Source: Candidatus Latescibacterota bacterium | GTDB lineage: Bacteria > Latescibacterota > UBA2968 > UBA8231 | Reading direction: 5' to 3' | NCBI GenBank assembly: GCA_965243025.1 | Contig: CBDETY010000003.1 | Coordinates: 96,001 to 160,000 of the forward strand | DNA: 64,000 nucleotides | In this document: one piece after another, positions 8,617 through 47,575 of the stretch | Layout: every line of letters begins with the position of its first letter | Numbering within the stretch: position 1 is the stretch's first letter | Notes under the pieces: model-generated | Told to the model about the DNA's origin: nothing | What the model saw: the letters and a program-made list of their open reading frames with translations, nothing else | Database searches by the model: none | Translations under genes and position numbers: made by a program

Positions 8617-8645
8617 GAAACGGTCTCCCGCCCTGAGAGAGGAAT

Positions 8646-11698: not shown

Positions 11699-11862
11699 TG
11701 TCCCGTCGCAGAAATATGTCGACATCGGGAAGCCGATCCATCCCGGCTCACGGCGTTGCCTTCGCTCGCCGTACACCCTCGGTACGACTCGCTCAGGCGC
11801 CTTGTGAGCCGGGCGCCTCGGCATCCCGATTCTGTCAATCTATCTCTGCGACGGGACACCAG
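11696..11862. repeat. MITE-like element with 15-bp terminal inverted repeats and an internal hairpin
   Basis: GTGTCCCGTCGCAGA (11698-11712) and TCTGCGACGGGACAC (11845-11859); internal CCCGGCTCAC...GTGAGCCGGG stem. Confidence 0.7.
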
Positions 11863-11928
11863 TGTCCTGGACATTCCCGACGACTCCGCACTTCTTCGCC
11901 CGGCGTACTTCTTTCAGGGAGATCACCC

Positions 11929-13447: not shown

Positions 13448-14332
13448 TTACCCCGATTTCACGGACAGTTTTCCGTTTGGATTTATACCCCTTGATAAAT
13501 GATACCTCTCGTAGTTGATGGGAGATCGTTGTCCCAGGGCCGAGTGCCGCCGATGGGGGTTGTACCAGCCTTCCAGGTATTCGAAAACCGTACGCTGGGC
13601 TTGCGACTGGGTAGCAAACCGATGACGATCCAGCAGCTCCCTTTCCAAGGTGGCGAAAAAGCTTTCGCACAGAGCATTGTCGAAGCAGTCACCGACCGAT
13701 CCCATCGACGGACGTACCCCGGCCTGGCGACAGCGCTTCCCGAAGGCCAGGGCCGTATACTGACTGCCGTGGTCGGAGTGGTGAATCACTTTCTTGGGAC
13801 GGCGCCGGTGCAGGGCCATGTCAAGGGCGTCCAGCACCAACTGCGTACGCATATGGTTCGCCATGGCCCAGCCCACCACTCGGCGGCTCCAGGCGTCCAT
13901 GACCACGCTCAGATACAAAAACCCCGACCTCGTGGGAATGTAGGTGAGATCGGCAACCCACAGGCGATTCGGGCCGGAGACCGAAAACACCCGCTTGACC
14001 AGGTCGGAGGCGACCCGGCCCTGCCGGCCGCGACGGGTGGTGGAGAGGCGGCGGCGGGCGCATACCCCGCGCACCCCGAGCTCAAGCATCAATCGGGCGA
14101 TGCGCTTGCGACCGATGGCTTGGCCCTCCTCGGCCAGTTCGGCCCGGATCCTCGGCGCTCCATAAGTGCCCCGGGAGTGTTGGTGGATCTGCTCGACACG
14201 TGCCTTGAGCACGGCATCGGCCCGGGCGCGACCCGAAGGCGGGCGTTTCAACCAGGCGTAGTAGCCGCTGGGGGAGACCTTCAGCACGCGGCACATCGTC
14301 AGCACCGGAAAGTCGGCCTGGTGCGCTCTCAT
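13448..14332 (-). CDS. IS3-family transposase OrfB (rve/DDE)
   Basis: WVADLTY, HHSDHGSQY, DNALCESFF and YNPHRRHS motifs. Confidence 0.95.
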   Translation of the reverse strand: MRAHQADFPVLTMCRVLKVSPSGYYAWLKRPPSGRARADAVLKARVEQIHQHSRGTYGAPRIRAELAEEGQAIGRKRIARLMLELGVRGVCARRRLSTTRRGRQGRVASDLVKRVFSVSGPNRLWVADLTYIPTRSGFLYLSVVMDAWSRRVVGWAMANHMRTQLVLDALDMALHRRRPKKVIHHSDHGSQYTALAFGKRCRQAGVRPSMGSVGDCFDNALCESFFATLERELLDRHRFATQSQAQRTVFEYLEGWYNPHRRHSALGQRSPINYERYHLSRGINPNGKLSVKSG

Positions 14333-14643
14333 GAACTCGTAGACGGGCCGGACTCCGAGTCGGCCTCGCGAGCGAACCAGGCCGTGGCTTTTGCCAGGAT
14401 CTCCCGTTCGATACGCAGTTGCTTGTTCTCACGGCGAAGGCGCCGCAATTCCTCCTGCTCCGGACGGGAGGGGCCGTCGCGGCGCACCCCCTCATCGCGT
14501 TCGGCCTGGATCACCCAGTTGCGGATCGTCTGCCCGGACGGCTCGAATTCCTTGGCCAGCGACTCCGGACTACGACCCGCCCGTACCAGTTCCACCATCT
14601 GTTGCCGGAATTCGGGCGGATAAGGGGAATGGGATTTCGGCAT
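14329..14643 (-). CDS. IS3-family transposase OrfA (HTH)
   Basis: YPPEFRQQMVELVRAG..TIRNWV..EELRRLRRENKQLRIEREILAKA; ATGA overlap with orfB. Confidence 0.95.
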   Translation of the reverse strand: MPKSHSPYPPEFRQQMVELVRAGRSPESLAKEFEPSGQTIRNWVIQAERDEGVRRDGPSRPEQEELRRLRRENKQLRIEREILAKATAWFAREADSESGPSTSS

Positions 14644-16277: not shown

Positions 16278-17537
16278 TTACTCGAAGGGGAGCAGGTCGT
16301 CGTTGGCGTCGAACTGCATCTCCCGCGGCGGCTCGACGACGCTGAGTTCGTCGCGGCGCGCCACCTCCTTCTCGCAGGCCTCCGAAACGAGGATCTCCTC
16401 GACGTCGAGGGTGTTGCGGATGCGCATCACCCTGGCGTCGGGCGGCTCCACCAGCCCGCAGGTCGACAGCGCCGCTTCGAGCACCTTGCGGTCGCTGTCG
16501 AAGGAGATCGGCACCGCCCCGGCCGACGGGTGGTTGCCGGTCATGGTGTTGATGGCGGTCGCCTCGAGGTCGATCTGGTCGAGGATGCGCGAGTGGATGT
16601 AGTCGGCCATGCCGATGCCGGAGGCGTTGCCGTGGGTCTCCTCGGTAAGGCTGCGCACAGCGATGCGGGTGACCTTGGGGTACTCCTTCTCGGCGGCCTT
16701 GTGGTCGTAGTACTTGCGGCCGATGACGTTGGTGTCCATGCCGGAGCCGCTGATGTTCTTGCCCATCTCCTCGACGACGAGCACGTCGATCTGCTCGAAC
16801 GGCAGCGAGGGCATCCACTTCTTGGCCAGCAGCAGCAGCTCCTTCTCCCCCTCGACGAAGTTCTCCGGCTCCACGGCGCGCACCAGGGCGGTCCTGTCGT
16901 ACTGGTTCTCGACGATGCCGAGGCCGAACAGCACCCCGCACTTGTCGATCACCGTCTGGCCGACCGAGCGCACGATGCGGTCGAAGCTGTAGTGGACGAT
17001 GGCCTGGTGGTAGAGGGCGGCCCCTTTGTGCTTGCCCAGCCCGATCAGCATCATCTTGTGCAGGCCGCTCTCGATCTCCCCGACGAACCCGGTGTGCGGC
17101 TTGACGCGCCCGGCGACGACCACGTGGTCGGCCTCGTACGCGTACTTGTCGAAGAAGACGGGCACCCCGTCCCCGGTCTCGCCGACCTGCACCACCTCCA
17201 TCGACGACCGGATCGGCGCCCCGATGTACTCCTCGGTGACCCCGTAGCTCTCGATGATTTCCCGCTGCCCCTCGGCCCTGCCGCCGCCATGGCTGCCCAT
17301 CGCCGGGACTGCGAACGGCTCGGCACCCAGGGCCTGCAGCTCCTCGATCATCGATCTGGTGATCAGGGCGATGTTGGCGATGCCGCGGCTGCCGACGCTG
17401 ATGGCGACGCTGTCTCCCTTGCCGACCTTGCCGGAAAGGTTCAGCCCGGCGATCTCCTCGCGCACGGCGCCGGGAATGTCCTCGAGCGTAGGTCCGTCGA
17501 AACGCTGTTTTACCCGCATCATCCTGGGAAGTTGCAT
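16278..17537 (-). CDS. LarA-like (lactate racemase N-terminal/DUF2088) domain protein
   Basis: GSRGIAN, PAMGSHGG, RVKPHT, ESGLHKMMLIGLGKHKGA and GKNISGSGMD motifs. Confidence 0.75.
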   Translation of the reverse strand: MQLPRMMRVKQRFDGPTLEDIPGAVREEIAGLNLSGKVGKGDSVAISVGSRGIANIALITRSMIEELQALGAEPFAVPAMGSHGGGRAEGQREIIESYGVTEEYIGAPIRSSMEVVQVGETGDGVPVFFDKYAYEADHVVVAGRVKPHTGFVGEIESGLHKMMLIGLGKHKGAALYHQAIVHYSFDRIVRSVGQTVIDKCGVLFGLGIVENQYDRTALVRAVEPENFVEGEKELLLLAKKWMPSLPFEQIDVLVVEEMGKNISGSGMDTNVIGRKYYDHKAAEKEYPKVTRIAVRSLTEETHGNASGIGMADYIHSRILDQIDLEATAINTMTGNHPSAGAVPISFDSDRKVLEAALSTCGLVEPPDARVMRIRNTLDVEEILVSEACEKEVARRDELSVVEPPREMQFDANDDLLPFE

Positions 17538-27951: not shown

Positions 27952-28974
27952 TCACACGAACAAACGGGTGATCTCGTCGACCTCGTAGCGGGGCAGCTGC
28001 TCCAGCCTGCCGCGGCGCCGCAACCGCAGGCCGGCGGACCGGTCGACGGCGCGGGCGACGACCTCGGCGCCGATCCCCGCTTCGGCCAGCGCCGCAAGGA
28101 TCGGTTCCGCCGCCTCCTGCGGGCAGCCGATCAGCAGGGCCCCGGAGGAGATCGCCCCGAACGGGTCGAGGCCGTACTCGGCGCACAGGCGCCGCGATTC
28201 GTCGCGGCAGCGCAGGCGGTCGCCGAACACTTCGAGGCCGACCCCGGAGGCTGCGGCGAGCTCCCGCAGCCCGGTGGCGACCCCCCCTTCGGTCGGGTCG
28301 TGCATGGCGTGCACCTCGGCCGCTTCTGTGGCGACCGCGGCGTCCCGCACCACGCTGATTCCGGGGTCGCGCAGGTACCCGGCGCAGCGGTCGAGGAAGG
28401 CGGCCTCGAACCCCCGTTCCTCCAGCTCCCCGCGCTTCTCCCGCGCGATGATGGCGGTGGCCTCGACCGCCATCCCCTTGGTGAGCAGCACCGCGTCTCC
28501 GGGCACCAGGCCTGAGGAGCGCACCACCTTTCCGCAGTCGACGTCCCCGAGCATCTGGCCGACGACGATGGGCCGGTCGATGCCGTGAGTGATCTCGGTG
28601 TGGCCGCCGCAGACGGCGATCCCGAGCTGCCGGGCGGCCTCGTCGATCGAGCGGAACACCGATTCGATCAGGGCCTCGGTCGCCTGCTCTTCGGGGAGGA
28701 TGACGGAGGCGAGGAAGAAGCGGGGGGTAGCTCCCATGGCGGCGACGTCGTTGGCGTTGACGTGGACGGCGTACCAGCCGGCCTCGTCGGTGGCGAAGGT
28801 GATCGGGTCGGTCTTGGCGACCACGCAGCGGTCCCCGAAGCGGATGACGGCGGCGTCCTCGCCGATTCCGGGGGGAACCAGCAGGCGCTCGTTCTCTCCG
28901 GCGGCGTAGCGGGAGAGCATGCGCCCGAGCAGCTCGGGGGGGAGCTTGCCGGCGGGGTAGCGCTCGCCGTTCAC
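27952..28974 (-). CDS. AIR synthase-related (PurM/HypE superfamily) protein
   Basis: GKLP, PGIGEDAAV, TDPITF, NANDVA, GGHTE and MHDPTEGG motifs; GTG start overlaps the cobA stop. Confidence 0.85.
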   Translation of the reverse strand: MNGERYPAGKLPPELLGRMLSRYAAGENERLLVPPGIGEDAAVIRFGDRCVVAKTDPITFATDEAGWYAVHVNANDVAAMGATPRFFLASVILPEEQATEALIESVFRSIDEAARQLGIAVCGGHTEITHGIDRPIVVGQMLGDVDCGKVVRSSGLVPGDAVLLTKGMAVEATAIIAREKRGELEERGFEAAFLDRCAGYLRDPGISVVRDAAVATEAAEVHAMHDPTEGGVATGLRELAAASGVGLEVFGDRLRCRDESRRLCAEYGLDPFGAISSGALLIGCPQEAAEPILAALAEAGIGAEVVARAVDRSAGLRLRRRGRLEQLPRYEVDEITRLFV

Positions 28975-30515
28975 CGGCGCTCCCCGGCGTAATGGGCGCA
29001 GATCGACCGCACGAGGGCGGGGATGCTGCTCTCGGGAGGCTGCAGGGCGGCCTCGAGCCCGAGGTCGCGGACCGCCTGCGCCGTGGTCGGGCCGATGCAG
29101 GCGAGGGCGGCTGCGGCCAGGTGGGCCATCCCCTTTTCCGGGCCGCAGACAGTGAGGAAGTTGCGCACCGACGAAGGGCTGGCGAAGACGATCATGTCGA
29201 GCCGGTTTTCGGTGAGGGCCGAGGGCAGCTCGACGGTTTCGGGGTCGGGGGGGCGGTTCTCGTAGGCGACGACGCGATGGACCTGCGCCCCCCGGCGCGC
29301 CAGCGCGGCGTCGAGACCGGTGCGGCCGATTGAGGATGCCGGTACCAGGAAGCTGGCCCCGGAAACCGCGATCTCCTCGAAGGCTGCGGCGAGCCCTTTC
29401 TGGGACTGCTCCCCCGGGACGAGGTCGGGCGCCAGTCCGCGGCGGCGCAGGTGCTGCGCCGTCGACATGCCGACCGCGGCGATGGAGCAGGGCCCGAGAG
29501 CGCGGGCGTCCTTTCCCAGGGCGGCGAGGCGGTCGAAGAAAAAGCTGACGCTGTTGGGGCTGGTGAACAGGATCCAGGCGAAATCCGGCAGGCGGCGGAG
29601 GGCGTTGTCGAGATCGCTCCAGTCCGGGGGCGGTCCGATCTCCAGCAGGGGCAGCGCCGAGACCTCGGCCCCTTCCGCCTCGAGCATCAGCTGCAGGCGG
29701 CCGGCCTGCTCGCGGCTGCGGGTGACGAGGATGCGGCGGCCGAACAGCGGCTTCCCCTCGAACCAGTTGAGCTGCTCCCGCAGGGAGACCACCTCCCCCA
29801 CGAGGACGAGGGTCGGCGACTCGAGGGACGCGTCTCTGGCCGCCTCGGCGACCCGTCCCAGAGTCGACACCACGGTGCGCTGGTGGGGCCAGGTCCCCCA
29901 CTCGATGGCCGCGGCCGGGGTTTCGGGAGTGCGCCCGTTCCGGGTCAGGGTGGCGGTGATCTCGCCGAGCTTGCGCGACCCCATGAAGACGACGAGGGTG
30001 CTGTCGAGCCGGGCAAGCATCTCCCAGTCGACCCCGGGGGCGCCGCGCGCGGGGTCCTCGTGCCCGGTGACGAGGACCGCGGCCGCCGAGACGTTGCGGT
30101 GGGTCAGGGGAATGCCGGCGTACGCCGGAACCCCGGAGGCCGCGGTCACTCCCGAGACGACCTCGAAAGGCACCCGGGCTTCGGCGAGGGCTACCGCCTC
30201 CTCACCGCCGCGGCCGAAGATGTAGGGATCTCCTCCTTTGAGGCGCACCACCCGGCGCCCCTCCCGCGCCAATTGAACGAGCAGCCCGTTGACCTCCTCC
30301 TGTTTCCGCGCGCCGCCGCCGCCGCGATGGCCGACGTACACCTTTTCGCAGTCCTCCCGGGCGAGCCTGAGAAGGCGCCGGTCGAGCAGGTCGTCGAACA
30401 GGATCACGTCCGCCTCGGAGACCAGGTGGGCCCCTTTCAGGGTCAGCAGGCCCGGGTCTCCAGGGCCGCCCCCGACGATGTAGACGGTTCCCGGCGCCGC
30501 CGGCGCGAAGTTCAT
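28971..30515 (-). CDS. cobA: Uroporphyrinogen-III C-methyltransferase / uroporphyrinogen-III synthase fusion (CobA-HemD)
   Basis: VGGGPGDPGLLT and RLKGGDPYIFGRGGEE, then PLFGRRILVTR, FTSPNSV, FASPSSV and CIGPTTA. Confidence 0.93.
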   Translation of the reverse strand: MNFAPAAPGTVYIVGGGPGDPGLLTLKGAHLVSEADVILFDDLLDRRLLRLAREDCEKVYVGHRGGGGARKQEEVNGLLVQLAREGRRVVRLKGGDPYIFGRGGEEAVALAEARVPFEVVSGVTAASGVPAYAGIPLTHRNVSAAAVLVTGHEDPARGAPGVDWEMLARLDSTLVVFMGSRKLGEITATLTRNGRTPETPAAAIEWGTWPHQRTVVSTLGRVAEAARDASLESPTLVLVGEVVSLREQLNWFEGKPLFGRRILVTRSREQAGRLQLMLEAEGAEVSALPLLEIGPPPDWSDLDNALRRLPDFAWILFTSPNSVSFFFDRLAALGKDARALGPCSIAAVGMSTAQHLRRRGLAPDLVPGEQSQKGLAAAFEEIAVSGASFLVPASSIGRTGLDAALARRGAQVHRVVAYENRPPDPETVELPSALTENRLDMIVFASPSSVRNFLTVCGPEKGMAHLAAAALACIGPTTAQAVRDLGLEAALQPPESSIPALVRSICAHYAGERR

Positions 30516-31456
30516 GGTGAGGCCGTGTCCTTGCGGCCCGCCCGCTCCAGCAGCCGGTCCGCTCCGGCTTCGAGCAGCTCGGCGGCCTGGTCGCGGCCGA
30601 GGGCGTCCGCGGCGTCGGGAAGGCCCTCGCCGGTGCGCCGCAGCAGCTCGCTGCCGTCCGCGGAGGCGACCAGGCCGTCGAGGAACAGCTCGCCGCTGAT
30701 CTCGCGCCCCCAGGCGGCGACCGGGGCGCGGCAGCCGGCGCCGAGGGTGTGGAGGAGGCTGCGCTCGGCCGCGGCGCCGGCCCGGGTCGGTCCGTGGTTG
30801 AGCTCGGCAACCAGTCCGCGGCGGGGGTCTCCCCGGCGCATCTGCAGGCCGAGAACTCCCTGTCCGGGGGCGGGCAGCATCTCGTCGGTGTCGAGGTAGG
30901 AGCTGATGCGGTCGAGCAGGCCGAGCCGCTGCAGGCCGGCGGCTGCCAGCACGACGCCGTCGAGGCCGTCCGCGCCGACTTTGCCTATCCGGGTGTCGAC
31001 GTTGCCGCGGATCTCCGCGAACCGCAGGTCGGGCCGGAGCGCCAGCAGTTGGGCGCGGCGGCGGGGGCTGCCGGTACCGAGAAGGGCTCCCCCGGGCAGC
31101 TCCTCGAGGCTGCGGTCCCCGGCGGTGACCAGCACGTCCCGCACGTCGGCCCGGGCAGGGGCGGCGGCCAGCTCGAGATCGGCGGGGACCGCTGTCGGCA
31201 GGTCCTTGAGGCTGTGGACGGCGAGGTCGACCCGACCGTCCCGCAGGGCGGTTTCGAGTTCCGCGGTGAACACCCCCTGCCCGCCGATCTCCGAGAGCGG
31301 ACCGCGGGAACGGTCCCCCTCGGTGCGGACGATCTCCAGCTGCAGATCCAGGGTGTCGCCGACCTCTTCCCGGAGCAGCGCGCAGACGCGCTCCGCCTGG
31401 GCGAGGGCCAGCCTGCTGCCGCGGGTGCCAACGGTGAGGGAATGCCGGGGGGCCAC
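30512..31456 (-). CDS. hemC: Hydroxymethylbilane synthase
   Basis: GTRGSRLALAQ, DLAVHSLKDLP, IRGNVDTR and PAPGQG motifs; start placed tentatively at GTG 31456. Confidence 0.93.
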   Translation of the reverse strand: MAPRHSLTVGTRGSRLALAQAERVCALLREEVGDTLDLQLEIVRTEGDRSRGPLSEIGGQGVFTAELETALRDGRVDLAVHSLKDLPTAVPADLELAAAPARADVRDVLVTAGDRSLEELPGGALLGTGSPRRRAQLLALRPDLRFAEIRGNVDTRIGKVGADGLDGVVLAAAGLQRLGLLDRISSYLDTDEMLPAPGQGVLGLQMRRGDPRRGLVAELNHGPTRAGAAAERSLLHTLGAGCRAPVAAWGREISGELFLDGLVASADGSELLRRTGEGLPDAADALGRDQAAELLEAGADRLLERAGRKDTASP

Positions 31457-31784
31457 GAGTGACGGGAAATTCTGCCGAAGGGAAGGAGGGAAGTGAGTCG
31501 CCCGAATATAGAAGCGGCCCCGGACCATCAACAGCTTTCGGCCCCTGGCCAAGGGGGGCTCTCAGGGCGAGGCCGAGTCAATGGCGGGGTGTAAGGCAAC
31601 GACCGTGATCGAAGCGAACCGCCGGGGGATTCGGGAGGCCGGCAACCTCAGAGTTCGGAACCCTCCGGAGAGCGCCGGAGAAGGGCCAGGCTCCGGGCAC
31701 GGACGAGCCCATGCTCCGGACACGAGCGGTCAGGTTCGCGGCCCGCAACGGACCGGCCGCAGCACGGACCCGCTATTTCATCGG

Positions 31785-32507
31785 TTACAGAAGAACCCCC
31801 GCGGCCTTCCTGCGGGCCGCCGTCAGGTGAGCGATCACCGTGTCGACGCCGGTGCCGTCGGCGATGCAGGCGAAGACGGTGGGGCCGTCCCCTCTCATCC
31901 TGCGGGCGTCCCGCGCCATCACCCCGAGGTCGGCTCCGACAAGGCGGGCGAGGTCGATCTTGTTGACCACCAGCAGGTCGGACTGGGTGATCCCCGGCCC
32001 TCCCTTGCGCGGTATCTTGTCGCCCCCGGAGACGTCGATCACGTAGATGGCGTAGTCGACGAGCTCCTTGCTGAAGTGCGCGGCGAGGTTGTCGCCGCCG
32101 CTTTCGAGCAGGAGCAGGTCGGGGCGGCAGCGCTCCATGAGGGTCTCGAGGGCGTCGAGGTTGAGGGCGATGTCCTCGCGGATCGCCGCGTGCGGGCAGC
32201 CGCCGGTCTCCACGCCGATGATGCGGTCGCTGTCCAGGGCGTCGTGGCGGACGAGGAAGTCGGCGTCCTCGCGGGTGAAGATGTCGTTGGTCACCACCCC
32301 GAGCTCCCAGTTCGTGCGCAGCCTTTCGCAGAGGGCCTTTACGAGCGCCGTCTTGCCGCTTCCCACCGGTCCGCCGATGCCGGCGGTGAAGGCGCGGCTC
32401 TGCAGGTCCCTGCGGTCTGCCATCCCCTCCCGGGCGGCGTAGGATCCGGGATCGTCGGGATGGCTGTGGCCGTGCCCGTTTTCGTTGTCGTGGCTGTGGG
32501 TGTGCAT
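31785..32507 (-). CDS. ureG: Urease accessory GTPase with a His-rich N-terminus
   Basis: [23 protein letters not shown] and NKID motifs; N-terminus [16 protein letters not shown]. Confidence 0.95.
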
Positions 32508-32620
32508 GTCGGTCTCCGCTGGTGTGCAGTTCAACTGTGGAAACAGGGTGAGTTCAGGCGCCACGGGCGATCGGTGATCTCGCAGCTGTGGATGGGCATG
32601 GCGATCTCGTCGACAGCGGA

Positions 32621-33358
32621 TCAGCTCTGGAACAGCCGCGAGTACAGGTGTCCGTGCGCGGCCTGCGCCAGGTCGAGCTGGGGGGCGCCCCGGCTCGCCT
32701 CCTCGCAGGGAATCAGGCGCGAGTCCCGGGCGGCCCTGGCGCACTCGGGGCGCAGGGAGGCGTGGCGCTCCACCGCCTCGAGGGGGCCGAGGATGCCGAG
32801 GCGTACCGCGGCCCCGAACTGGTCTCGCAGCAGCTGGTGCAGGAAAAGGGTGGCCGCCTCCTCCTCGCCGACCCCGGCGGCGCCGAGACAGGCCCCGAAG
32901 AGTATGCAGCCGTGGGGGGCCGTACCGGGCGTCGAGAAGAGGCGCTCGATGCGGCGCTGGCCCGGGCCGGGGAACAGCCGCGGGAACAGGCGCAGCCAGC
33001 CGCGCCCGGTCTTGAGGCTCGCCTGGCGCGCGCAGGCCGCGGTCTGCATGGCGTCGTAGCGCTGCGCCAGCTCCACGAGTCCGGCCCCCGGGGGCTGCGC
33101 GAGCCTCCAGGCTTCCCGCAGGAAGGGGAGATCGCAGGTGCCGGCGGTGCGCAGGGCCTGGCGCGCGAACTGGTGCAGACTGTCCCCGTCGGCGACCAGC
33201 CCCAGCTGCCGCGCCGCTTCCAGGCCCGCGGAAAAGGCGTAGCCCCCGGTCGGCAGGGCCGCGTCTCCGAGCTGCAACAGCAGCAGCAGGGGGTCCCCGC
33301 TATTGGCGGCGCCGGGGACCGTTCCGGGTTCCGTCTCGATGGCGGGGTACTGTGTCAT
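32621..33358 (-). CDS. ureF: Urease accessory protein F
   Basis: [21 protein letters not shown]; ends HLYSRLFQS. Confidence 0.92.
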
Positions 33359-33384: not shown

Positions 33385-35097
<1,713 letters not shown>

Positions 35098-35113: not shown

Positions 35114-35881
35114 TCAGGTGGCGGGCCGGTCGCAGAGGAAGCCGCGCTCCCGCGCCCGGGACAGGGCCGGGCCCCGCCGCTCGTCGCTGGCCTCGCCGCC
35201 GGTCAGGCCGTTGCCTCCGAACACCCGGCGGCGCCCGTCGATGGCGACGAGGTCGACGGTCTTCACCTCTCCCGGCTCGAAGCGGACCGCGGTGCCGCTG
35301 GGGATGTCGAGGCGGAAGCCGAAGGCGCGCCCGCGGTCGAAGCTCAACTGCGGGTTGGTCTCGAAGAACGGGTAGTGGGACCCGACCTGGACCGGCCGGT
35401 CACCGAGGTTGGCGACCTCGAGCCGGACCGTCTCCCTGCCGCTGTTGATCTCGATCTCTCCTGGGGCCGGGACCACCTCTCCCGGAGCCGCCCCGGTGGA
35501 GTTGTCCGGCGACCAGGGGGCGGATGCCGTGCGTTCGAGGCCGGACCCGTGAAGGGCGAGCAGAGGGTCGCCGCGCCCGCTGCAGATCGGGTCGTGCACC
35601 GTCACCAGCTTGGTGCCGTCCGGGAACGTCCCCTCGACCTGCACCTCGCCGACCATCTCCGGCACCCCTGGCAGGACGTCGGCGGTGCCGAGCAGCCGCT
35701 TGCCCCGGTCCATGAGGTCGGCGACGCTGCCGCCGTCGCGGATGAACTCGAGCAGCTGCGAGGCGATCAGGGCCACCGCCTCCGGGTAGTTGAGCCGCAG
35801 CCCCCGGGCGTAGCGCTTCTGGCTGACGAAGCCGGCCCCGTGCAGGACGAGCTTGTCGATCTCCCTCGGTGACAGTCGCAT
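35114..35881 (-). CDS. ureAB: Fused urease gamma/beta subunit
   Basis: [26 protein letters not shown], then [21 protein letters not shown] in one frame. Confidence 0.95.
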
Positions 35882-35886
35882 GCGCT

Positions 35887-36785
<899 letters not shown>

Positions 36786-36789
<4 letters not shown>

Positions 36790-37763
36790 GACGGAGACAT
36801 CCCGCGGCCGCCCCGTTCCCAGGGAAACAGGAAGCGCTCGATCAGCCCGAGGACCTGGTCGGTGGTCAGCCCGATGATGCCGATCATGGCGATGGCGGCG
36901 AAGACGTTGTCGTAGTTCCGGTACTTCGCCTGCTGGTTGATGAAGTAGCTGATCCCGGAGCTGGCCCCGATCAGCTCGGCGACGATCAGGTAGGTCCAGG
37001 CCCAGCCGAGCAGGATGCGCAGGTCGCGGTAGAGCTTGGGCAGGATCCCGGGGACGATCACGTGCAGGATCAGCTGCTTGCGCCGCGCCCCGAGGGTCTG
37101 CGCCGCCTCGATCAGGGAGGTCTCGAGCAGGCGCGTGGTGTTGCCGACGACGAGCACCATCTGGAAGAAGGTGCCGATGAAGATGATGGCGACCTTGGGG
37201 GCGTCGTTGATGCCGACGAAGGCGACGACGAGGGCGCCGAACGCCGGCGCCGGCATGTAGCGGATGAAGTCGACGAACGGCTCGGTGAGGCGGGCGAAGA
37301 AGTGGAAGGTGCCGCACAGGATCCCCAGGGGGACGCCGATGAAGGCCGACAGCACGAACCCGTAGAAGATGACGCGGATGCTGTGGGCGATGCTCTCGTG
37401 GAGCCAGGGCCCGCCGCGCCGCACCGGCGGCGTCGCAAAAGCGGTGACGAAGGCCGCGGCCGCCTCGTGCGGAGCCGGCAGGTACACCGGGTTGCAGCGC
37501 CGCCCGGCGGCTTCCGCCCTGCCCTGCTCGCGCGCCAGGGCGTTCTCGCGGGCGAACAGCTCGCGGTCGACGCGCATGCCGGGCTCGAAATAGCCGATTT
37601 CCCCGGGGTCGGCCACCAGGATCTGCGGACTCCACACCCAGGGCACGTAGCTGACCGCCCCCCACAGCGACAGGGGGAGCAGGAACGACAGCAGGCCGAG
37701 TCCGAGGCCGCGCCGCGGGGAAAGCGGCTTTCTGACGGCGAGCCAGGGGCCCCGGTTTCCCAT
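36786..37763 (-). CDS. ABC transporter permease (NitT/TauT type)
   Basis: [18 protein letters not shown] and [11 protein letters not shown] motifs. Confidence 0.93.
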
Positions 37764-37771
37764 GGCGCGGC

Positions 37772-39643
37772 TCAGGCGAACAGTCTCTTCAGCTCGCCGT
37801 CGAGAGGCGCCTCCGCACATCCGGGAGGCAGGCCGAGACGGCGGCCGACGACGCCGAAGAAGAGGCTCCTGCGGGCGTCGTGACCTTGGAGCCGGCTCGC
37901 CAGCACGTCGGCGGCGGCCAGCCCGGAGCTCAGGGTGACGACGCCGGGGCGGGGCAGGAGGTCGTAGTTGCCCCAGCGGCTGCGGTAGAGACCGGTGCGG
38001 CCCCAGCGGACCGCGACGTTGAGCGATTCGGCCATCCCGTAGCAGTCGAACAGGGCGCCGTACATCAGGGCGAGGTCGCAGCATACCGAGGCGAAGCAGG
38101 CCGGATCCGGGCCGTGCCAGTCGCTGCGCAGCGGCGCCGGGATCAGCCCGAACAGGTTGGAGATGCTCAGCCGCGTGGCCCCCTTGAAGCGGGCGAACGA
38201 AAGCAGGGGGGCGCCGCGGTAGTCGAGCAGCAGGCGGGGCACGAAGCCGGCGAGCTCCGGGTGGGCGAGTTCGACGCCGGCGGCCCGCAGCAGGCCGTCA
38301 ACCTCGTCAGGGCCGGCGCACTGGCCGTCCCAGAACGCCTCGGTGACGTTGAGGTAATGGGCGCCGTGGCGGTCGATCACCTCCTGGAGGCCGGTGCGGC
38401 GCAGGTACTCCGCCTCCTGCTCCCGTATCCAGCGGCGGTGGCGGCGGCCGTCGGGCCACTCGATCCCGGGATCTGTGCCGTCGTTGCGGCCGGCGCTGTG
38501 CCCCTCGAGGAGGACGGCGCGGCCGTCGAGGGCGGTCAGCAGCTGGTCGAGGGCGACCGGGTCGGTGTAGGTGCCGGGGGCGTACCCGTGCCAGGTCACC
38601 TTGACGAAGACCGGGTCGCCGCGGATGCCGAAGCGGTCGAGGAGCTTTTCAAGGCTTCCGGTATCGAAGATCCTCGCTACTACTCCGGGGCCGTAGGCCA
38701 GGTCTTCGGGGATGCGGTCCCCGAGCTCGGCGACAGCGAGCCGGCCGCCCGGCCCGGAAAGAACGGAGCGCTGCATGCCGCCGGCGCCGCGGGCGTTGGG
38801 CAGGCGCGCCGACGCCCTGGAGCGGTGCGAGTTCCACAGCCTGAGCAGGCGCGCCTGCAGCCAGGCGGCGATGTTCGGGTGGCCGTCGGCGAAGTCCCCG
38901 ACCAGGCAAGGGGGCCCGGTGGGTCGGCCGGCGGCCCATTCCCGCACCCGCCGCAGGAACAGCTCGCGCGCCCCGGCCTCGGCGAGGATCGCGGGAACCA
39001 GCAGGCGCGGCCCTTCCCCTGCCTCGAGGACGGTCTCCAGCCCGGGGTTGTCGCAGTACAGGAAAGCCGCGTCCGCTTTCCCCGCTCCCACCTCCTCCCA
39101 GACCAGGCGCATGAGGCGGTAGACGCGGGCGCGGTCCGCGGCGTCTCCCTGGCCGCCGGAGACGACGACGAGATGGGCCTCGCCGGGCGGCACCCCGGCC
39201 CGGTTCAGGGCCTCAAGGGCGGAGTCGGCGAAAGCCCGCACCGGCAGCGGCTCGCACAGGTCCGGTTCGTCGCAGAAGATGCGGGCCCCTCCCGGGCGCC
39301 TGCGGGCGCGGGCGACGCTCTCGGCGAACGCCTGCCTGCGGAAGAGGTCGAACCCCGAGGTGAACGGCAGCAGGAAGAGCTCGTCGTGTCCCTGTTCGAT
39401 ACAGCCCTCCAGCACTTCGTCGAGGCCGGAGGCCCCGGAGTCGGCGCCGGATTGCCCAGCCTCCGCCATCGCAGCGCCGAACAGGGGGGCGTCGAAACCG
39501 AGGGCGGCGGAGGCTCCGGCCGCCACCGCTGCGGCGAGACCGCGGTCGCCCGCGGCGCCCGCGTCCCCGGCGATGACGAAAGCAGGACCGGCCGCGGGGG
39601 CCGCCGGCGGCGCGGTTGCGGGGGATGCGGCGGCTTCGCTCAC
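37772..39643 (-). CDS. Fusion of a CbiX-like chelatase-fold region and a DUF362-like domain, 623 aa
   Basis: [23 protein letters not shown]...PGL is CbiX-like; VFVKVTW..TYTDP..LEGHS and [14 protein letters not shown] are DUF362-like; GTGA overlap with the hydrolase stop. Confidence 0.6.
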
Positions 39644-40809
39644 CCCTCTGCCCCTGCCGCGAGCTTGCCGCCGATGCGGCCGTTGTCCACCATCGCCGCC
39701 AGCGCGTCCATCATGGCGCGCACCCCGAGCAGGGCGGTGATGTCGGAGACGTCGTAGGGGGGTGCGACCTCGACGACCTCCATGGCGGCGATCCCCTCGG
39801 CGGCGATGCCGCGCAGCAGGGCCAGGGCCTCCCGCGGCAGGAACCCGCCGGGCTCGGGCCAGCCGGTGCCGGGCACGTACCCGGCGTCGACGGAGTCGAT
39901 GTCGAAGGAGAGGTACACGGCGCTGGCCCCCTTCCAGGCGACCTCGAGGGCGATCTCGAGGGTCTTGTCGATCCCCAGGGACTCGATGTCGTCGATGGTC
40001 AGCACCGTCGAGCGCATCGAGCGGCCGTGGCGCACCCCGGCGCGCGGCACCTGCCAGCCGCCGATCCCCAGCTGCACGAGGTTGGCGGGCGGGCAGTTGG
40101 GGATGCTGGTGGCGTGGAACCAGGGGCAGGTGTGCATGATCTCGTCCATGTCCCGCTCCTGGGTGTCGACGTGCCGGTCGAGGTGGATGATGCCGATGTT
40201 CCCCTCGACGCACTCGGCCACCCCTCGCGCGCATGGGTAGCCGATCGAGTGGTCCCCTCCCATGATCATCGGCAGGGTGTCGCTGCCGATCACGTGGGCC
40301 ACCGCCTTCGAGATCTGGTCGTGGCTCTTGGTGATGTTGGCGGGGCAGAAGACGTCCCCGAGGTCGCACATCTTCAGCGTCTCCCTCAGGTCGATTCCCA
40401 TCTCGAAGTTGTAGGGGGTGTAGAGGGAGGAAATGCGCCGCATGCCCTGGGGCCCGAAGCGGGTCCCGGAGCGGTAGGTGGTGCCGATGTCGAAGGGGGC
40501 GCCGAGGAAGGCGACGTCGTACTCGCCGACCCGGCGCACGTCCTCGAGGAACGGGCACTTGAGGAAGGTGTTGATCCCCGACCAGTGGGGCAGCTCGCCG
40601 CGCTGGAAGCAGCTGATCCCCTCGCGGTCCTCGATCGAGGGGGCCGCCTCGAGGCCGAGTTCGCGCCCCCTCGCCGCCTCGGTCCGCCACTGCTCGTCGC
40701 CGAGCCCGGCCTCGGCGTCCTGGGCCTTCCACCCCCGCAGCTGGGAGAGGTCGGGGACGTCGCGGCCGTGGCCGCGGAATCCGGGGGCGTGGTCCTGGTA
40801 GAAGGGCAA
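39640..40809 (-). CDS. gdmH: Ureohydrolase of the guanidine hydrolase (GdmH/Sll1077-like) clade
   Basis: RGELPHWSGINTF, YTPYNFEMGIDLRE, GGDHSIG, HLDRHVD, MHTCPWFHAT, GIGGWQVPR and PGTGWPEPGG match GdmH as recalled; TTG start after AAGGAGG. Confidence 0.8.
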   Translation of the reverse strand: MPFYQDHAPGFRGHGRDVPDLSQLRGWKAQDAEAGLGDEQWRTEAARGRELGLEAAPSIEDREGISCFQRGELPHWSGINTFLKCPFLEDVRRVGEYDVAFLGAPFDIGTTYRSGTRFGPQGMRRISSLYTPYNFEMGIDLRETLKMCDLGDVFCPANITKSHDQISKAVAHVIGSDTLPMIMGGDHSIGYPCARGVAECVEGNIGIIHLDRHVDTQERDMDEIMHTCPWFHATSIPNCPPANLVQLGIGGWQVPRAGVRHGRSMRSTVLTIDDIESLGIDKTLEIALEVAWKGASAVYLSFDIDSVDAGYVPGTGWPEPGGFLPREALALLRGIAAEGIAAMEVVEVAPPYDVSDITALLGVRAMMDALAAMVDNGRIGGKLAAGAEG

Positions 40810-40870
40810 CTCGACATCCTCCTTGGTTGGTGATTGGCGGCGCCGGCTCGGGTGTCCGGTGCCGTGCTCC

Positions 40871-41875
40871 CTACTCCTTCTTCGCCAGCTTCCCGGCGTA
40901 CTCCACGACCAGCGAGGGGTCGAGATAGGAGTCGACGGCCTGCGGCTTGTCGTACACCTTGTTGGCGACGTTGAACTCGTCGACTACTGCGCTCGATCCG
41001 TAGACCGAGCCGAGGCCCTCCGCCTTTGTGAAGCGCTCGACCGACTCTTCGAGGGAGAGGATGTAGGTTCCCTTGGTGAAGGGGGCGTACTGCTCCGGGG
41101 TGAGGCCGACCCGGGCGCTCATGATGCCGAGGGCCTCCTCGCGGTTCGCCTCGTCGGCGAGGTAGTCGACGATCCGGTACCAGACCCCGACCACCTTCAT
41201 CCAGTCGCCGCGGTTCGCCGCCAGGCTCTCGCTGCTGACGTAGAGCAGGTCGTAGATGATGCCCGGGGCGTCGGCGCTGGTGAAGACCGGCTTCGAGCCG
41301 GCGACCAGGTTGAGCGCCTGTCCCGAGTTGGGCTGCCAGGCGACGATGGCGTCGACCCCCTTGGAGGCCAGCGCCTGTGGGGTCTCGTGGGTCGGCATGT
41401 TCATCAGCTCGACGTCGGCTTCCTTCATGCCGTTTGCCTCCAGCGCCGTCAGCAGCAGCAGGTGGGAGACGAAGCCGAGCTCGACGCCGACCTTCCTGCC
41501 CTTGAGCCCGGCCACCGCGCCGATCCCCGGCCGCGCCACGACCATGTCGTTGCCGTTGCTGTAGTCGTTGAGGATGATCCCCTTGCAGGCCTTGCCGGAC
41601 GAGCCGATGACCATGGCGTCGCCGTTGGTCATGGCCACCGCGTCGATCTGGCCGGCGGCGAAGGCGTCCATCGAGGGGACGTACTCGAACCAGATGAACT
41701 CCGCCTCGACCCCCGCCTCGGCGAACCAGCCCTTCTGTATGCCGACCTCCCATGCGACCCAGCCGGGCCAGTCGCTGTAGCCGATCCTGAGCTTGGCGTC
41801 GAGGCCGGTGGCGGCGGTGGTGACGATGAAGCCGGCGGTCAGCAGTGCCGTCCGCCAGAGCCGTGTGCGTGCCAT
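40871..41875 (-). CDS. ABC transporter substrate-binding protein (probably guanidine or urea)
   Basis: Signal peptide; GYSDWPGW and DYSNGNDM motifs; first gene of the operon. Confidence 0.85.
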
Positions 41876-41941
41876 GAAATCCTCCTTGAGAATGAATCCG
41901 CGGCGCGGAAAAGGCGTGTTGATGGGAAACGCGGGACAGTT

Positions 41942-41957
41942 TGCAAATCAGGGGCCA
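41942..41957 (-). promoter_or_regulatory. sigma54 promoter of the guanidine/urease operon
   Basis: Minus strand TGGCCCCTGATTTGCA (GG-N10-GC). Confidence 0.8.
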
Positions 41958-42091
41958 GACCGTTAGTCCGGTGTTCAGGAAACCGCCCGGCGACTGGCGC
42001 AACTGTTTGTCGGGGAAAGGGTTGTACCCGAGGTGTTTTTTTCGGGGGGTCGCGAAGGCTACCGGGGGAAGAGGCGATTGGCGATGCAGTA

Positions 42092-42135
42092 CGACATTTT
42101 TGTAGCAGGAAATCCTCGTTAAGACACTATTGTCG
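42092..42135. promoter_or_regulatory. Paired ACA-N4-TGT palindromes 30 bp apart; candidate enhancer
   Basis: CGACATTTTTGTAG (42092) and AGACACTATTGTCG (42122). Confidence 0.65.
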
Positions 42136-43023
42136 CACAGGGCCCGGGTGCGGGCCGAGCAGTCTTTCGACCGGGTTGCCTCCGAGCAGGATGCCGGCCG
42201 CATCCCCGAGGAGCCGGCGCAGGGGATCGAGGGATTCGCACCGGTCCGCCAGGGCCCGCAGCACCCAGACCTCCTCCCGCGGCCGGGAGTGGGCGACGAG
42301 AAGGCCGGACTCCCCGGACGCCGCGGGGCCGCCAGCGGCGGCAGGCGGGATGCTCTCTTCCAGCCGCTCTGCAAGGGAGCGGAAACGGCGGCTGTCGGGG
42401 CGGCCGACGGCGCAGGCGTTGAGGAGGGCGGTGCCGCGGCCGAAGGCCCCGGCCGAGTCCGGCGGGGTCTCGTCCGGCCGCGACCGGTAGCGCTCCAGGA
42501 GGACCGTCCTGCCGTCGACGAGGACGTCGATGTCGGAGCGGTACTCGCGGTAGGCGAAGCGCTCGCCGCGCAGGACCCTGCCGGCGGTGTGCCCGTCCGC
42601 GAGCAGGAGCACGGCATCCCCCTCCAGGCTCCAGCGCTGCCGCTGGCGGTAGATGCTGCCGGCGAACGGCACCACCGGGTCCGGCATGACCACCGCGGTC
42701 CCGCCGTCGGCCACGTCGCCGCGCACATCCTGGCGGCAGCCGTCGCCGGCGGGGCACCTGTACACCTTGCCGAGGGCCTGGGTGCCGAGGAAGAGGGCGG
42801 CCCCCGGACCGCAGCGCACCTCGAGGTCGACGGCGTCCCCCTCGACCAGGCCGCCGCCGTAGGAGGAGAGGATCACCGGGCAGTACCCCTCCGCGGCGCG
42901 CGGGTTGAGCAGCTTGAGCGGGGGGACCGAACGGCAGCGGGTCAGTCTCGAGACGCCGCCGCAGCGCTCGACGGCGGCGAGGGAATGCTGCCCCTGCGAC
43001 GGGGTTCCGGATTCGTCGGTCAC
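42127..43023 (-). CDS. ureD: Urease accessory protein D
   Basis: PLKLLNP, SSYGGGLVEGD, GTQALGKVY and PDPVVPFAGSIYRQ motifs. Confidence 0.9.
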   Translation of the reverse strand: MTDESGTPSQGQHSLAAVERCGGVSRLTRCRSVPPLKLLNPRAAEGYCPVILSSYGGGLVEGDAVDLEVRCGPGAALFLGTQALGKVYRCPAGDGCRQDVRGDVADGGTAVVMPDPVVPFAGSIYRQRQRWSLEGDAVLLLADGHTAGRVLRGERFAYREYRSDIDVLVDGRTVLLERYRSRPDETPPDSAGAFGRGTALLNACAVGRPDSRRFRSLAERLEESIPPAAAGGPAASGESGLLVAHSRPREEVWVLRALADRCESLDPLRRLLGDAAGILLGGNPVERLLGPHPGPVRQ

Positions 43024-43046
43024 GCTGGAGGGGCTGCCGGCAGGGC

Positions 43047-43087
43047 AAAAAAGAGGCAGGCCGTCGCCGGGACGGCCTGCCTTCTTT
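43047..43087 (-). terminator. Rho-independent terminator after glnA
   Basis: 12-bp stem AGGCAGGCCGTC/GACGGCCTGCCT followed by CTTTTTT on the minus strand. Confidence 0.8.
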
Positions 43088-43135
43088 CGGATTGGACGGC
43101 GCTCGGCTTCGAACGCCGGCCGGAGTTGCCCAGCC

Positions 43136-44620
43136 TTACACCATGTCGTAGTAGAGGGCGAACTCGTACGGGTGGGGCCGCAGCCGAATGGCGTCGATCT
43201 CCTCTTCCCGCTTGTAGTCGATCCAGGCCTGGATCACGTCCTCGGTGAACACGTCCCCCTTGAGCAGGTACTCGTGATCCTTCTCGAGGGCGTCCATCGC
43301 CTCGTCGAGCGACGCCGGGGTCAGCGGCACCGATTCGCGCTCCTCGGCGGACAGCTCGTAGATGTCGGTGTCCATCGGATCGCCCGGGTCGATCTTGTTG
43401 AGCACCCCGTCGAGGCCGGCCATCAGCATGGCCGACATCCCCAGGTACAGGTTGCAGCTGGGATCGGGGCAGCGGAACTCGACCCGCTTGGCCTTGGGGC
43501 TGGCCGAGTACATCGGGATGCGGCAGGCGGCGCTGCGGTTGCGCTGCGAGTACGCGAGGTTCACCGGCGCTTCGTACCCGGGAACCAGGCGGCGGTAGGA
43601 GTTGGTGGTCGGGTTGGTGAAAGCCAGAAGGGAGGCAGCGTGCTTGAGCAGGCCGCCGATGTAGTGCAGCGCCATCTCGCTCAGCCCGGCGTAGCCGTTG
43701 CCGGCGAACAGCGGCCGGCCCCCCTTCCACAGGCTCTGGTGGGTGTGCATGCCGGTGCCGTTGTCCTCGAACAGGGGCTTGGGCATGAAGGTCGCGGTCT
43801 TGTTGTGTTTCCTGGCGACGTTTTTGACGACGTACTTGTAGATCATCATCTGGTCGCCGCAGCTGACCAGCGGACAGAAGCGGATGTCGATCTCTCCCTG
43901 CCCGGCGGTGCCGACCTCGTGGTGCTGGAGCTCGACGTCGACGCCGGCCTCCATCATCGTCAGCACCATTTCAGAGCGGATGTCCTGCAGCGTGTCGTGC
44001 GGGGGCACCGGGAAATAGCCGCCCTTGTAGGGAGGCTTGTACCCGAGGTTGGGCTGCTCGTCGGCGCCGGAGTTCCAGCGGCCTTCGACGGAGTCGATGA
44101 AGTGGAAGGAGGAGTGCGCGTTCTGGTCGTACTGGATGCTGTCGAAGACGAAGAACTCCGCCTCCGGGCCGAAGTACGCGGTGTCGGCGAGGCCGGTGGA
44201 CTTCAGGTAGGCCTCCGCCCGCCTGGCGACGTTGCGCGGATCTCGGCCGTAGTCCTCGCGCGTGATGGGATCGACGATGTCGCAGATGATCGACAGGGTC
44301 GGGACCTCGCAGAAGGGATCGCGGAAAGCGGTGGCCGGATCGGGCATGACGAGCATGTCGCTCTCGTCGATCGACTGCCAGCCGCGGATGCTGGAGCCGT
44401 CGAACCCGAGGCCGTCGCTGAACATGTCCTCTTCCAGCGTCGAGGCCGGAATCGAGAAGTGCTGCCAGGTTCCTGGGAAGTCGACGAACTTGAAATCGAT
44501 CATCTGCACGCCCTGTGCCTTGGCGGCGGCGACGACCGATCTCGCGGTGGCGGCCGGGGCCGCCTTGGCTTTCGCTTTCGACTTGGGTGAAGCTTTGGTC
44601 TTCGGTTTGGCTTTTGCCAT
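43136..44620 (-). CDS. glnA: Glutamine synthetase type I
   Basis: [32 protein letters not shown] and RVEFRCPDP motifs; Lys/Ala-rich N-terminal extension. Confidence 0.97.
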
Positions 44621-44775
44621 TGTGGTTCCTCCGTGGGGAAAAGGGTGCGTTGGCAGTCCGCAGTGGGTTGGAAACGGGAGAATCCGGCGGGTGAAAAACA
44701 GCCCGTGAATATAGCGGGGATCTCACCCGCATCAACGGCCTGGAGGGCCGCTGCGGAAAAAGCGCGTCATGGAGA

Positions 44776-44803
44776 AGCCCCGGGGCGGCGACCCCCCGGG
44801 GCT
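44776..44803. terminator. GC-rich hairpin downstream of the porin gene
   Basis: AGCCCCGGGG-N8-CCCCGGGGCT; weak U-tract. Confidence 0.4.
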
Positions 44804-44854
44804 GTTCGGTATCCCGCCGTGCGTGCCGGCGGTCGGGCGACTTGTCCCGGGGGG

Positions 44855-45505
44855 CTACAGACCCTTCATCAATACCAGGTAGGACTGCTCGGTATCGGGG
44901 TTGAGGATGTACGAAGCGGAGTAGTCCCCCATCGAGACGCCGATGCCGACGTTGATCAGCGCCGGATCCCCGGAGCTGGTGTAGTACGACTCGGTGCCCA
45001 GTCCCGCGAACAGCCCGGCGGAGACGTCGTCGCCGGACATGAACTCGTAGCCGACCTCGGCGTAGACCGGGGTCGTGCCCGCGGCCCCGAGGAAGATCAG
45101 GGCTCCGGTAACGCTCAGCGGTCCGCTGGCGAAGGAGACCATCGCCTCGAGCTGATGAACCGCGTCGTCGTCGTCGTAGTTGAAGAACTCCGTTCCCCCC
45201 CCGTTGGGGAAGTAGTAGTCGCTCAGGGTGATCGAGACCGGCCCCGTCGAGTAGCTGACGTACAGGTCGTTCTCGTTGGCCCCGCTCGAGGTCAGCGACC
45301 AGGACGACCAGGCCCCGATCTCGATGCCGGCCTCGGTCGCGTACGACAGGTACGGCTGAATGACGAAGCTGTCGTCGAGGCTGAGGCCGCGCCAGATGTA
45401 GCGGGTCGCGGCGTCCGCCCCGACTCCGAACTCGGCGTGCGCCGGCACTGAAACCACCGCGGCCAGCGCGGCTGCGTAGAATGCTGCGAGAATCCTGCGT
45501 GCCAT
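44855..45505 (-). CDS. TorF-like putative outer-membrane porin
   Basis: Signal peptide; RYIWRG..IQP..GAWSS..ENDLYVSY motifs; lies next to glnK-amtB. Confidence 0.7.
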   Translation of the reverse strand: MARRILAAFYAAALAAVVSVPAHAEFGVGADAATRYIWRGLSLDDSFVIQPYLSYATEAGIEIGAWSSWSLTSSGANENDLYVSYSTGPVSITLSDYYFPNGGGTEFFNYDDDDAVHQLEAMVSFASGPLSVTGALIFLGAAGTTPVYAEVGYEFMSGDDVSAGLFAGLGTESYYTSSGDPALINVGIGVSMGDYSASYILNPDTEQSYLVLMKGL

Positions 45506-47559: not shown

Positions 47560-47575
47560 TGCAAACGCGGTGCCA
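47560..47575 (-). promoter_or_regulatory. sigma54 promoter of amtB-glnK
   Basis: Minus strand TGGCACCGCGTTTGCA, near consensus. Confidence 0.9.

Follow-up and report, generated by a model that had tools for sequence, protein, structure and literature searches.

Guanidine hydrolase (GdmH), a nickel enzyme that acts in the nitrogen cycle, was discovered only recently; it has the arginase fold, for which manganese is the usual metal. A nickel route to GdmH is so far established for cyanobacteria only. In Synechocystis, the HypA/HypB-like proteins GhaA and GhaB (sll1078/sll1079) are co-transcribed with gdmH and required for the incorporation of nickel, according to the available passages of PMC12704784 and PMC12186494, and in the parts available of PMC12704784 and of PMC8390497 supplementary file 4 ghaA/ghaB occupy the slot behind cyanobacterial gdmH. 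We compared this arrangement with a locus in a 64,000-nucleotide stretch of DNA from Candidatus Latescibacterota bacterium (assembly GCA_965243025.1, contig CBDETY010000003.1, positions 96,001 to 160,000; this whole stretch is called the window in the following). Here gdmH is followed by a gene for a 623-amino-acid protein with a CbiX-like N-terminal half and a DUF362-like C-terminal half, which we call the fusion gene. Both genes form a conserved pair in many genomes, and in our view there is about an even chance that the fusion is a dedicated accessory protein of GdmH, most likely for nickel loading.

The evidence for the pairing comes from a scan of 185,579 species genomes, which returned 105 relatives of the fusion gene; 80 loci were kept and their neighbours within 8 kb examined. 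A GdmH homolog is present in 77 of these loci (tblastn), and after projection of the alignments to the gene ends it lies directly upstream on the same strand in 76 of 80, with 58-88% identity. In two loci (L040 and L068) the contig stops before adjacency can be judged, so that it was testable in 78 loci and present in 76 of these. The first-pass annotation of the window, which had proposed an alternative metal-delivery factor or an extra enzyme, regarded linkage to a ureohydrolase as essential, and this linkage was borne out. The only exceptions to the pairing are two loci from Verrucomicrobiae, L038 and L078; in the latter a fragmented fusion gene (8001-9600) lies beside putA and GdmH is located about 7 kb away. 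The loci belong to eight phylum-level groups (Latescibacterota, Myxococcota, Acidobacteriota, Planctomycetota, Verrucomicrobiota, Tectimicrobiota, Poribacteria and Binatia) and include the cultured Singulisphaera acidiphila DSM 18658 (Planctomycetota, L010). For 36 paired loci the spacing between the GdmH stop and the first residue of the fusion in the alignment was determined; it ranges from -7 to 164 nt and is mostly below 30 nt, with a median of about 14 nt. The other neighbours vary: a substrate-binding protein (SBP) gene was found in 44, an ATPase gene in 48 and urease genes in 23 of the 80 loci, hemC, cobA/hemD and glnA in none of them, and in Isosphaeraceae there is only a porin gene beside the pair. 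The conserved unit is gdmH plus the fusion gene, the sole constant among the loci. Among 72,556 plasmids no match to the fusion protein was detected by tblastn. As a separate observation, a 2-oxoglutarate (2OG)-Fe(II) oxygenase (DIOX_N + 2OG-FeII_Oxy) is encoded just upstream of the ATP-binding cassette (ABC)-gdmH-fusion genes in L053 (2851-3906, plus strand) and L070 (cluster c283), and it could be a guanidine-forming enzyme.

In the window, the frame of the fusion gene runs from a GTG start to a TGA stop without internal stop, and its GC content at the three codon positions (0.77/0.55/0.90) matches the pattern of the neighbouring genes. A rival open reading frame (ORF) on the plus strand (37880..39757) was rejected, as its values of 0.88/0.56/0.78 represent the antisense pattern. 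The junction reads ...GGG GTGA GCG..., with the gdmH stop TGA at 39642-39640 and the fusion start GTG at 39643-39641, so that the tetranucleotide GTGA (39640..39643) is common to both genes, which suggests translational coupling. On the minus strand the gene order is ureD, SBP gene, gdmH, fusion gene, permease gene, ATPase gene, ureAB, ureC, ureF, ureG, hemC and cobA/hemD. Frame, GC pattern, junction and gene order are in line with the first-pass description of a gene that overlaps the hydrolase stop inside an ABC operon.

The hydrolase encoded in front of the fusion gene is a predicted GdmH ortholog. A phmmer search against the PDB returned the guanidinase of Nitrospira inopinata (9fek, E = 7e-141) and Synechocystis GdmH (7esr/7oi1, E = 9e-141), and the next matches, guanidinobutyrase and other family members, have E-values of 1e-48 or weaker. 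GGDHS, DRHVD and SFDIDSVD, which we take to be the metal-ligand motifs of the arginase family, are invariant in 37 GdmH orthologs. In a quick tree of 73 fusion-linked and 6 unlinked sequences (rows with high-scoring segment pairs below 330 residues were dropped), 70 of the 73 fusion-linked GdmH form one clade with a long stem (Shimodaira-Hasegawa-like approximate likelihood ratio test, SH-aLRT, 100), and the window GdmH is closest to Latescibacterota sequences. The other three (L008, L055 and L061) are located outside this clade and group weakly with actinobacterial sequences. The main clade carries C67, C155, T160, H163 and I224, which never occur in the six unlinked homologs compared, has KSHDQI versus KSFDQI and a loop shorter by one residue (F-CPAN versus FTIPAN). 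A separate clade of the partnered GdmH in this quick tree supports the accessory reading of the fusion. The fusion partners of the three outlying GdmH were checked for loss of C442 or H382, two residues of the C-terminal half, and no such association was found.

The fusion family comprises 444 homologs at E <= 0.001 (90% clusters; 223 representatives at the 50% level), which are mostly 550-645 amino acids long and about 45% identical. The window protein itself has no match in Pfam or NCBIfam, in the case of Pfam even at E <= 10. PF01903 (CbiX) is precomputed in 41 of the 120 homologs listed, and the homologs P0004 and P0025 reach 37 and 47 bits at a cut-off of 22. A profile from 22 homologs matches SirB in the PDB (5zt7, E = 7.8e-7), and the AlphaFold2 (AF2) model of the N-terminal half (predicted local distance difference test score, pLDDT, 81.7; predicted template modelling score, pTM, 0.77) retrieved SirB 5zt7 in a Foldseek search (E = 2e-8, TM(target) 0.72), as well as CbiK, CbiX 4ccs and HemH/ferrochelatases. 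The N-terminal half is thus predicted to be a two-lobed class II chelatase (CbiX/SirB) fold, as had been recognised in the first pass. Proteins with the chelatase fold handle metals, and a crystal structure of SirB with nickel is available (5zt9). The SirB metal ligands are His10, Glu43 and His76, and the pseudo-symmetric positions in the C-lobe are Arg134 and Leu200 (PMC11301274, in the part available). Mapping through a hidden Markov model alignment places G26/D27 and F101 of the window protein at His10 and His76, and in 152 distinct full-length members these positions are T/S/G and W/L/F and in no case histidine; the loss of the histidine of the HGS motif, already suspected for the window copy, therefore extends to the whole set. 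Because the canonical chelatase histidines are missing, tetrapyrrole chelation is unlikely, and the N-terminal half probably does not act as a chelatase. In the C-lobe, H197 is present in 142, H225 in 79 and H165 in 49 of the 152 members, and four members have none of these; since the C-lobe positions were mapped by hand, their equivalence to SirB positions is tentative. All three histidines (SGH...RH...EH) are kept in 43 of 152 members and absent from the window copy, and therefore members of the family may differ in the way the chelatase half binds metal, or in whether it binds metal at all. A search for longer Rosetta-stone fusions, which we count as weak evidence, found none.

Most invariant columns of the family fall in the C-terminal half, and the N-terminal half is much less conserved. 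Stand-alone relatives of the C-terminal half are about 300-350 amino acids long (E-values to the query between 1e-50 and 1e-16), and all 17 that were scanned exceed the PF04015 threshold of 24 bits with 25-65 bits; full-length fusion homologs reach 11.8-12.5 bits. The closest Atlas clusters are DUF362 (score 0.94), and a further Atlas search gave the own family only. The half is therefore confirmed indirectly as a putative DUF362-family domain, which agrees with the first-pass assignment. The structural comparison proposed at that stage for both halves succeeded for the N-terminal one, which matches SirB, and failed for the C-terminal one: its AF2 model on 57 sequences (pLDDT 96, pTM 0.94) retrieved nothing from the PDB by Foldseek at E <= 0.001 (top TM 0.25-0.33). 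A profile search with this half found no relative among the PDB sequences either, and acetylpolyamine amidohydrolase matched over a short stretch (E = 0.2-0.6), which was judged to be due to chance. Common to fusions and stand-alone DUF362-like relatives are K348, E380, K487, N496, F498, G499, R506, H510, D523, E539 and D579. Only the fusions carry H352 (32/32), H382 (30/32), C442 (29/32), C521 and C522 (32/32 each) and a GLYRSRWG loop. A P-loop (GxxxxGK[ST]) is not present in the fusion protein.

In the passages of the literature that mention DUF362 no function is assigned, and DUF362 and the LarA domain DUF2088 are placed in one Pfam clan (CL0471) in the available part of PMC11770544. The window also encodes a LarA-superfamily protein about 20 kb from the fusion (16278-17537, minus strand; 531 bits versus an NCBIfam cut-off of 400, "nickel pincer cofactor-dependent isomerase, group 22"), that is another nickel-dependent enzyme and DUF362 clan mate, flanked by genes for a Zn-dependent and an Fe-dependent alcohol dehydrogenase. 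An hhalign comparison of the C-half profile with this protein gave a probability of 0.12%, a weak comparison with a single sequence on one side.

The first-pass annotation had also stated that hypA/hypB are absent from the window, and as far as tested this holds: there is no HypA/HypB among 52 ORFs scanned with Pfam, tblastn with UreG returned UreG alone, and a regular expression for a HypA motif had no match; ureD, ureF and ureG are present. The same applies to the related loci. UreG belongs to the CobW/HypB/UreG family, and CobW-family ORFs occur in 21 of the 80 loci, all of them UreG orthologs in urease clusters with 54-65% identity to the window UreG. The HypA expression gave no credible match over the 80 loci, as one match resembles a transposase zinc finger, and the 72 proteins scanned with Pfam, 23 in one set and 49 in another (all of the former and 47 of the latter are cluster representatives of neighbour ORFs, without the singletons), contain neither HypA nor HypB. 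Therefore, by these searches and apart from urease UreG, a HypA/HypB-like gene is missing within 8 kb in all 80 loci, and the mutual exclusivity proposed at the outset stands in one direction, from the fusion loci to hypA/hypB.

Other genes were found in the slot behind gdmH on plasmids, of which 11 records carry a GdmH homolog. On plasmids of Limimaricola, Rhodobacteraceae SC52 and Sinorhizobium fredii NGR234 an ORF of 149-179 amino acids overlaps or abuts the gdmH stop in an ABC-gdmH operon. These alpha-proteobacterial proteins have no Pfam or NCBIfam match, and both that were translated (Limimaricola and S. fredii; L082 and L084) begin with an extended tract rich in His and Asp. The His-rich ORF of S. 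fredii NGR234 is followed by a gene for a HupE/UreJ nickel permease. The His-rich protein seems to be another, so far undescribed kind of nickel helper for GdmH.

We favour the accessory reading because gdmH and the fusion gene form a conserved pair with putative translational coupling, HypA/HypB genes are missing from the fusion loci and in other lineages the same slot is taken by nickel-related genes. Translational coupling would lead to production of the fusion in a fixed proportion with GdmH. The fusion would then bind GdmH and handle nickel, and help to load the metal into the buried dinuclear site of this arginase-fold enzyme or to mature that site in another way, and in this lineage it would fill the place of the cyanobacterial HypA/HypB-like GhaA/GhaB. 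H352, H382, H510, C521 and C522 may constitute the working site, and the chelatase-like half might be a scaffold or docking domain. In the fusion loci L022 and L026 a HupE/UreJ gene is located upstream of gdmH, two genes away, and supports this assignment, as it points to a nickel link inside fusion-bearing operons. A more far-reaching version is conceivable, with the balance somewhat against it: the fusion could represent a third, NTPase (nucleoside triphosphatase)-independent machinery for nickel insertion dedicated to an arginase-fold enzyme, in which the His/Cys site of the DUF362 half hands nickel to nascent GdmH and the catalytically dead chelatase domain docks it. If the nickel-insertion reading is true, it would be the first function for the DUF362 superfamily, and GhaAB, the His-rich protein and the fusion would stand for at least three independent fillings of the slot behind gdmH.

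Several observations weigh against a nickel-loading accessory protein. The fusion has neither a His-rich tract nor a P-loop, unlike HypB, UreG and the alpha-proteobacterial protein, and the window copy, with Q165, C197 and A225, is among the four of 152 members without any C-lobe histidine. Locus L038 has an intact fusion gene (8001-9827) beside putA and no GdmH within 8 kb. The polar set of the C-terminal half (two Lys, His, Asp/Glu, Asn and Arg), common to the stand-alone DUF362 relatives, looks more like an enzyme site than a chaperone, and UreD/UreF/UreG, encoded in the operon here and in 21 other loci, could serve as nickel source. Furthermore, no helper gene adjoins gdmH in Rubrobacter (2 records) and Nonomuraea, and for comammox Nitrospira the available text of PMC11410670 reports no recognisable nickel chaperone and calls the nickel route to guanidinase unclear. 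Since not every GdmH gene has a helper beside it, a dedicated factor is not required in all cases.

The enzyme-like character of the C-terminal half leads to another explanation, which we regard as rather unlikely, namely that the fusion is a second enzyme of the pathway whose DUF362-like half, for example, frees guanidine from a substituted guanidine or processes a by-product, with GdmH acting on the product. The invariant K348, E380, K487, H510, D523, E539 and D579 are enzyme-like and also found in the stand-alone relatives, the clan mate DUF2088/LarA is an enzyme (PMC11770544, available part), the C-terminal half is far better conserved than the N-terminal one, and the lack of an NTPase motif and of a His-rich tract fits an enzyme as well. 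However, the minimal loci consist of gdmH and the fusion gene only, so that no further pathway step is evident. The adjoining GdmH is closely related to two enzymes characterised on free guanidine, and the ABC importer resembles the cyanobacterial guanidine importer (PMC12704784, passages). The start/stop overlap with its predicted 1:1 output would also fit a partner better, which is a weak argument.

It is distinctly improbable, in our opinion, that the fusion is a non-catalytic structural or regulatory subunit which forms a stable hetero-complex with GdmH and tunes its stability, specificity or activity. Hetero-oligomeric nickel ureohydrolases, such as metformin hydrolase with its inactive subunit MetCb (PMC11271267, in the part available), provide a precedent, but MetCb is a paralogue of the enzyme and the fusion is not a paralogue of GdmH. 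Translational coupling, the near-obligate adjacency, the degenerate chelatase half and the separate clade that the partnered GdmH form, with a long stem and distinct residues at the surface or in the pocket, would all speak for a subunit, but the invariant His/Cys/Lys/Asp set of the C-terminal half argues for chemistry and not for scaffolding alone. A working tetrapyrrole chelatase or cofactor-biosynthesis enzyme that stands beside gdmH for regulatory convenience only is very improbable, since its fold, the C-lobe triad in part of the family and the hemC and cobA/hemD genes behind ureG in the window are outweighed by the consistent loss of the His10/His76 equivalents, the window copy without the three C-lobe histidines, conservation that resides in the DUF362 half and not in the chelatase half, and the absence of these tetrapyrrole genes from all 80 loci, for which reason we reject the link they suggest.

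Table 1. Genes, domains and elements at the gdmH/fusion locus (positions in the window; plasmid ORFs with positions in the named loci)
Feature	Position	Strand	Basis
Fusion gene (CbiX-like/DUF362-like, P0001)	37772..39643	-	open frame, GC at third codon position (GC3) 0.90, homologs
Fusion N-half, residues ~20-285, predicted class II chelatase fold	38789..39586	-	profile vs PDB, Foldseek, residue columns
Fusion C-half, residues 289-623, putative DUF362-family domain	37775..38779	-	PF04015 matches of stand-alone relatives, Atlas, AF2
gdmH, predicted Ni-dependent guanidine hydrolase ortholog, arginase family, 389 aa	39640..40809	-	PF00491 E 2.4e-73; phmmer vs PDB
ABC substrate-binding protein, NMT1/SsuA type	40871..41875	-	PF13379, PF09084; TIGR03427 and TIGR01728 below cut-off
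ABC permease; ATG 8 nt past fusion stop	36786..37763	-	PF00528, start mapping
ABC ATPase; ATG overlaps permease stop (ATGA)	35887..36789	-	PF00005, start mapping
ureAB fusion	35114-35881	-	Pfam/NCBIfam, start mapping
ureC	33385-35097	-	Pfam/NCBIfam, start mapping
ureF	32621-33358	-	Pfam/NCBIfam, start mapping
ureG, His-rich N-terminus	31785-32507	-	Pfam/NCBIfam, translation, start mapping
ureD, upstream of transporter genes	42127..43023	-	PF01774 E 3.7e-43
hemC	30512-31552	-	downstream of ureG
cobA/hemD fusion	28971-30515	-	downstream of ureG
Candidate sigma-54 -24/-12 element TGGCCCCTGATTTGCA, 1 mismatch	41942..41957	-	67 nt upstream of SBP start
ORFs behind gdmH, alpha-proteobacterial plasmids	L082 7178-7693; L083 7157-7606; L084 6145-6684 and 6710-7297	+	

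The SBP of the window (Table 1) resembles the corresponding component of the gimA-type guanidine importer. Upstream of the operon are glnA, a P-II gene, amt and a gene for a sigma-54 activator. The candidate sigma-54 element in front of the SBP gene is a lead only, because such matches are no more common in the window (16) than expected from shuffled sequences (17.4). A perfect sigma-54 -24/-12 consensus, TGGCACCGCGTTTGCA, is located at 47560-47575 (minus strand), a short distance upstream of the ammonium transporter gene and beside the sigma-54 activator gene. A guanidine riboswitch was detected neither in the window (gathering threshold) nor in 39500-45200 (E <= 1) nor in the 8 loci, of the 80, that were searched. 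Overall, the region appears to be under nitrogen control and not under that of a riboswitch.

Among the urease genes, the UreG ORF (31785-32744, minus strand) has a His-rich stretch preceding the GTPase domain, and no ureE was found among the window ORFs scanned. Directly behind ureG, hemC, cobA/hemD and a gene of the aminoimidazole ribonucleotide (AIR)-synthase family follow on the same strand (27952-31552); the top match of the latter is HypE at 113 bits, far under the cut-off of 252 bits. The Rfam model 5_ureB_sRNA matches antisense to the urease genes in the window (34650-34944, plus strand; 42 bits, just over the gathering score) and also in L046 (11960-12263) and L009 (4596-4895) with 87-101 bits, which may reflect conserved urease coding sequence only. 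Further away, the window encodes a creatininase-family protein (11698-12651, plus strand; PF02633, TIGR04448 below cut-off), which possibly acts in guanidino-compound metabolism, and an insertion sequence (IS)-type transposase pair (HTH_Tnp_1 + rve integrase core; 13448-14643, minus strand) within a stretch of lower GC3.

The pairing of gdmH with the fusion gene is not described in the literature searched, which covered passages of guanidine papers and two supplements and did not include Funck et al. 2022 (Nature 603:515). In the available part of PMC8390497 supplementary file 4, hypA is mentioned 46 times, and chelatase, CbiX and DUF362 are not mentioned. Previous surveys of gene neighbourhoods started from guanidine riboswitches; as none was detected at the fusion operons searched (window and eight loci), such surveys may have overlooked the pairing. 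It spans soil Acidobacteriota, Planctomycetota, Verrucomicrobiota, Myxococcota and sponge-associated phyla, and therefore it likely represents a maturation route, or an extra step, for a large share of environmental guanidine degraders. For heterologous expression, these GdmH enzymes may need the fusion gene. Furthermore, the pair provides the first concrete functional context for a DUF362 subfamily and an example of a chelatase fold stripped of its ligands.

Compared with GhaA/GhaB, the fusion gene has the same genomic slot directly behind gdmH, but there is no relation in sequence or fold. The fusion is one polypeptide of two other folds and has neither the P-loop of the HypB GTPase nor the zinc-finger/MHE motif of HypA (motifs searched as regular expressions), and its operons carry no guanidine riboswitch in the window and eight loci. 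Without a P-loop and any Pfam or NCBIfam match, it is therefore at most a functional analogue of the HypA/HypB maturases and not a member. SirB, CbiX, CbiK and CfbA have the two-lobed fold that is predicted for the N-terminal half, which differs from SirB in that His10 and His76 are not kept, in its fusion to DUF362 and in the lack of a tetrapyrrole gene context in the related loci. In the case of DUF362 (PF04015), the stand-alone relatives of the C-terminal half pass the threshold, whereas the window protein itself is below it, and the fusion subfamily adds invariant motifs of its own. The alpha-proteobacterial His-rich ORF shares the position behind gdmH, but its product, of 149-179 amino acids with a poly-His/Asp N-terminus, is unlike the fusion (hhalign probability 0.05%). 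Finally, the nickel-delivery proteins UreD/UreF/UreG share an operon with the fusion in the window and were found in 21 of 80 loci; they have unrelated folds, accompany urease and are missing from the majority of fusion loci, in contrast to the fusion, which goes along with gdmH.

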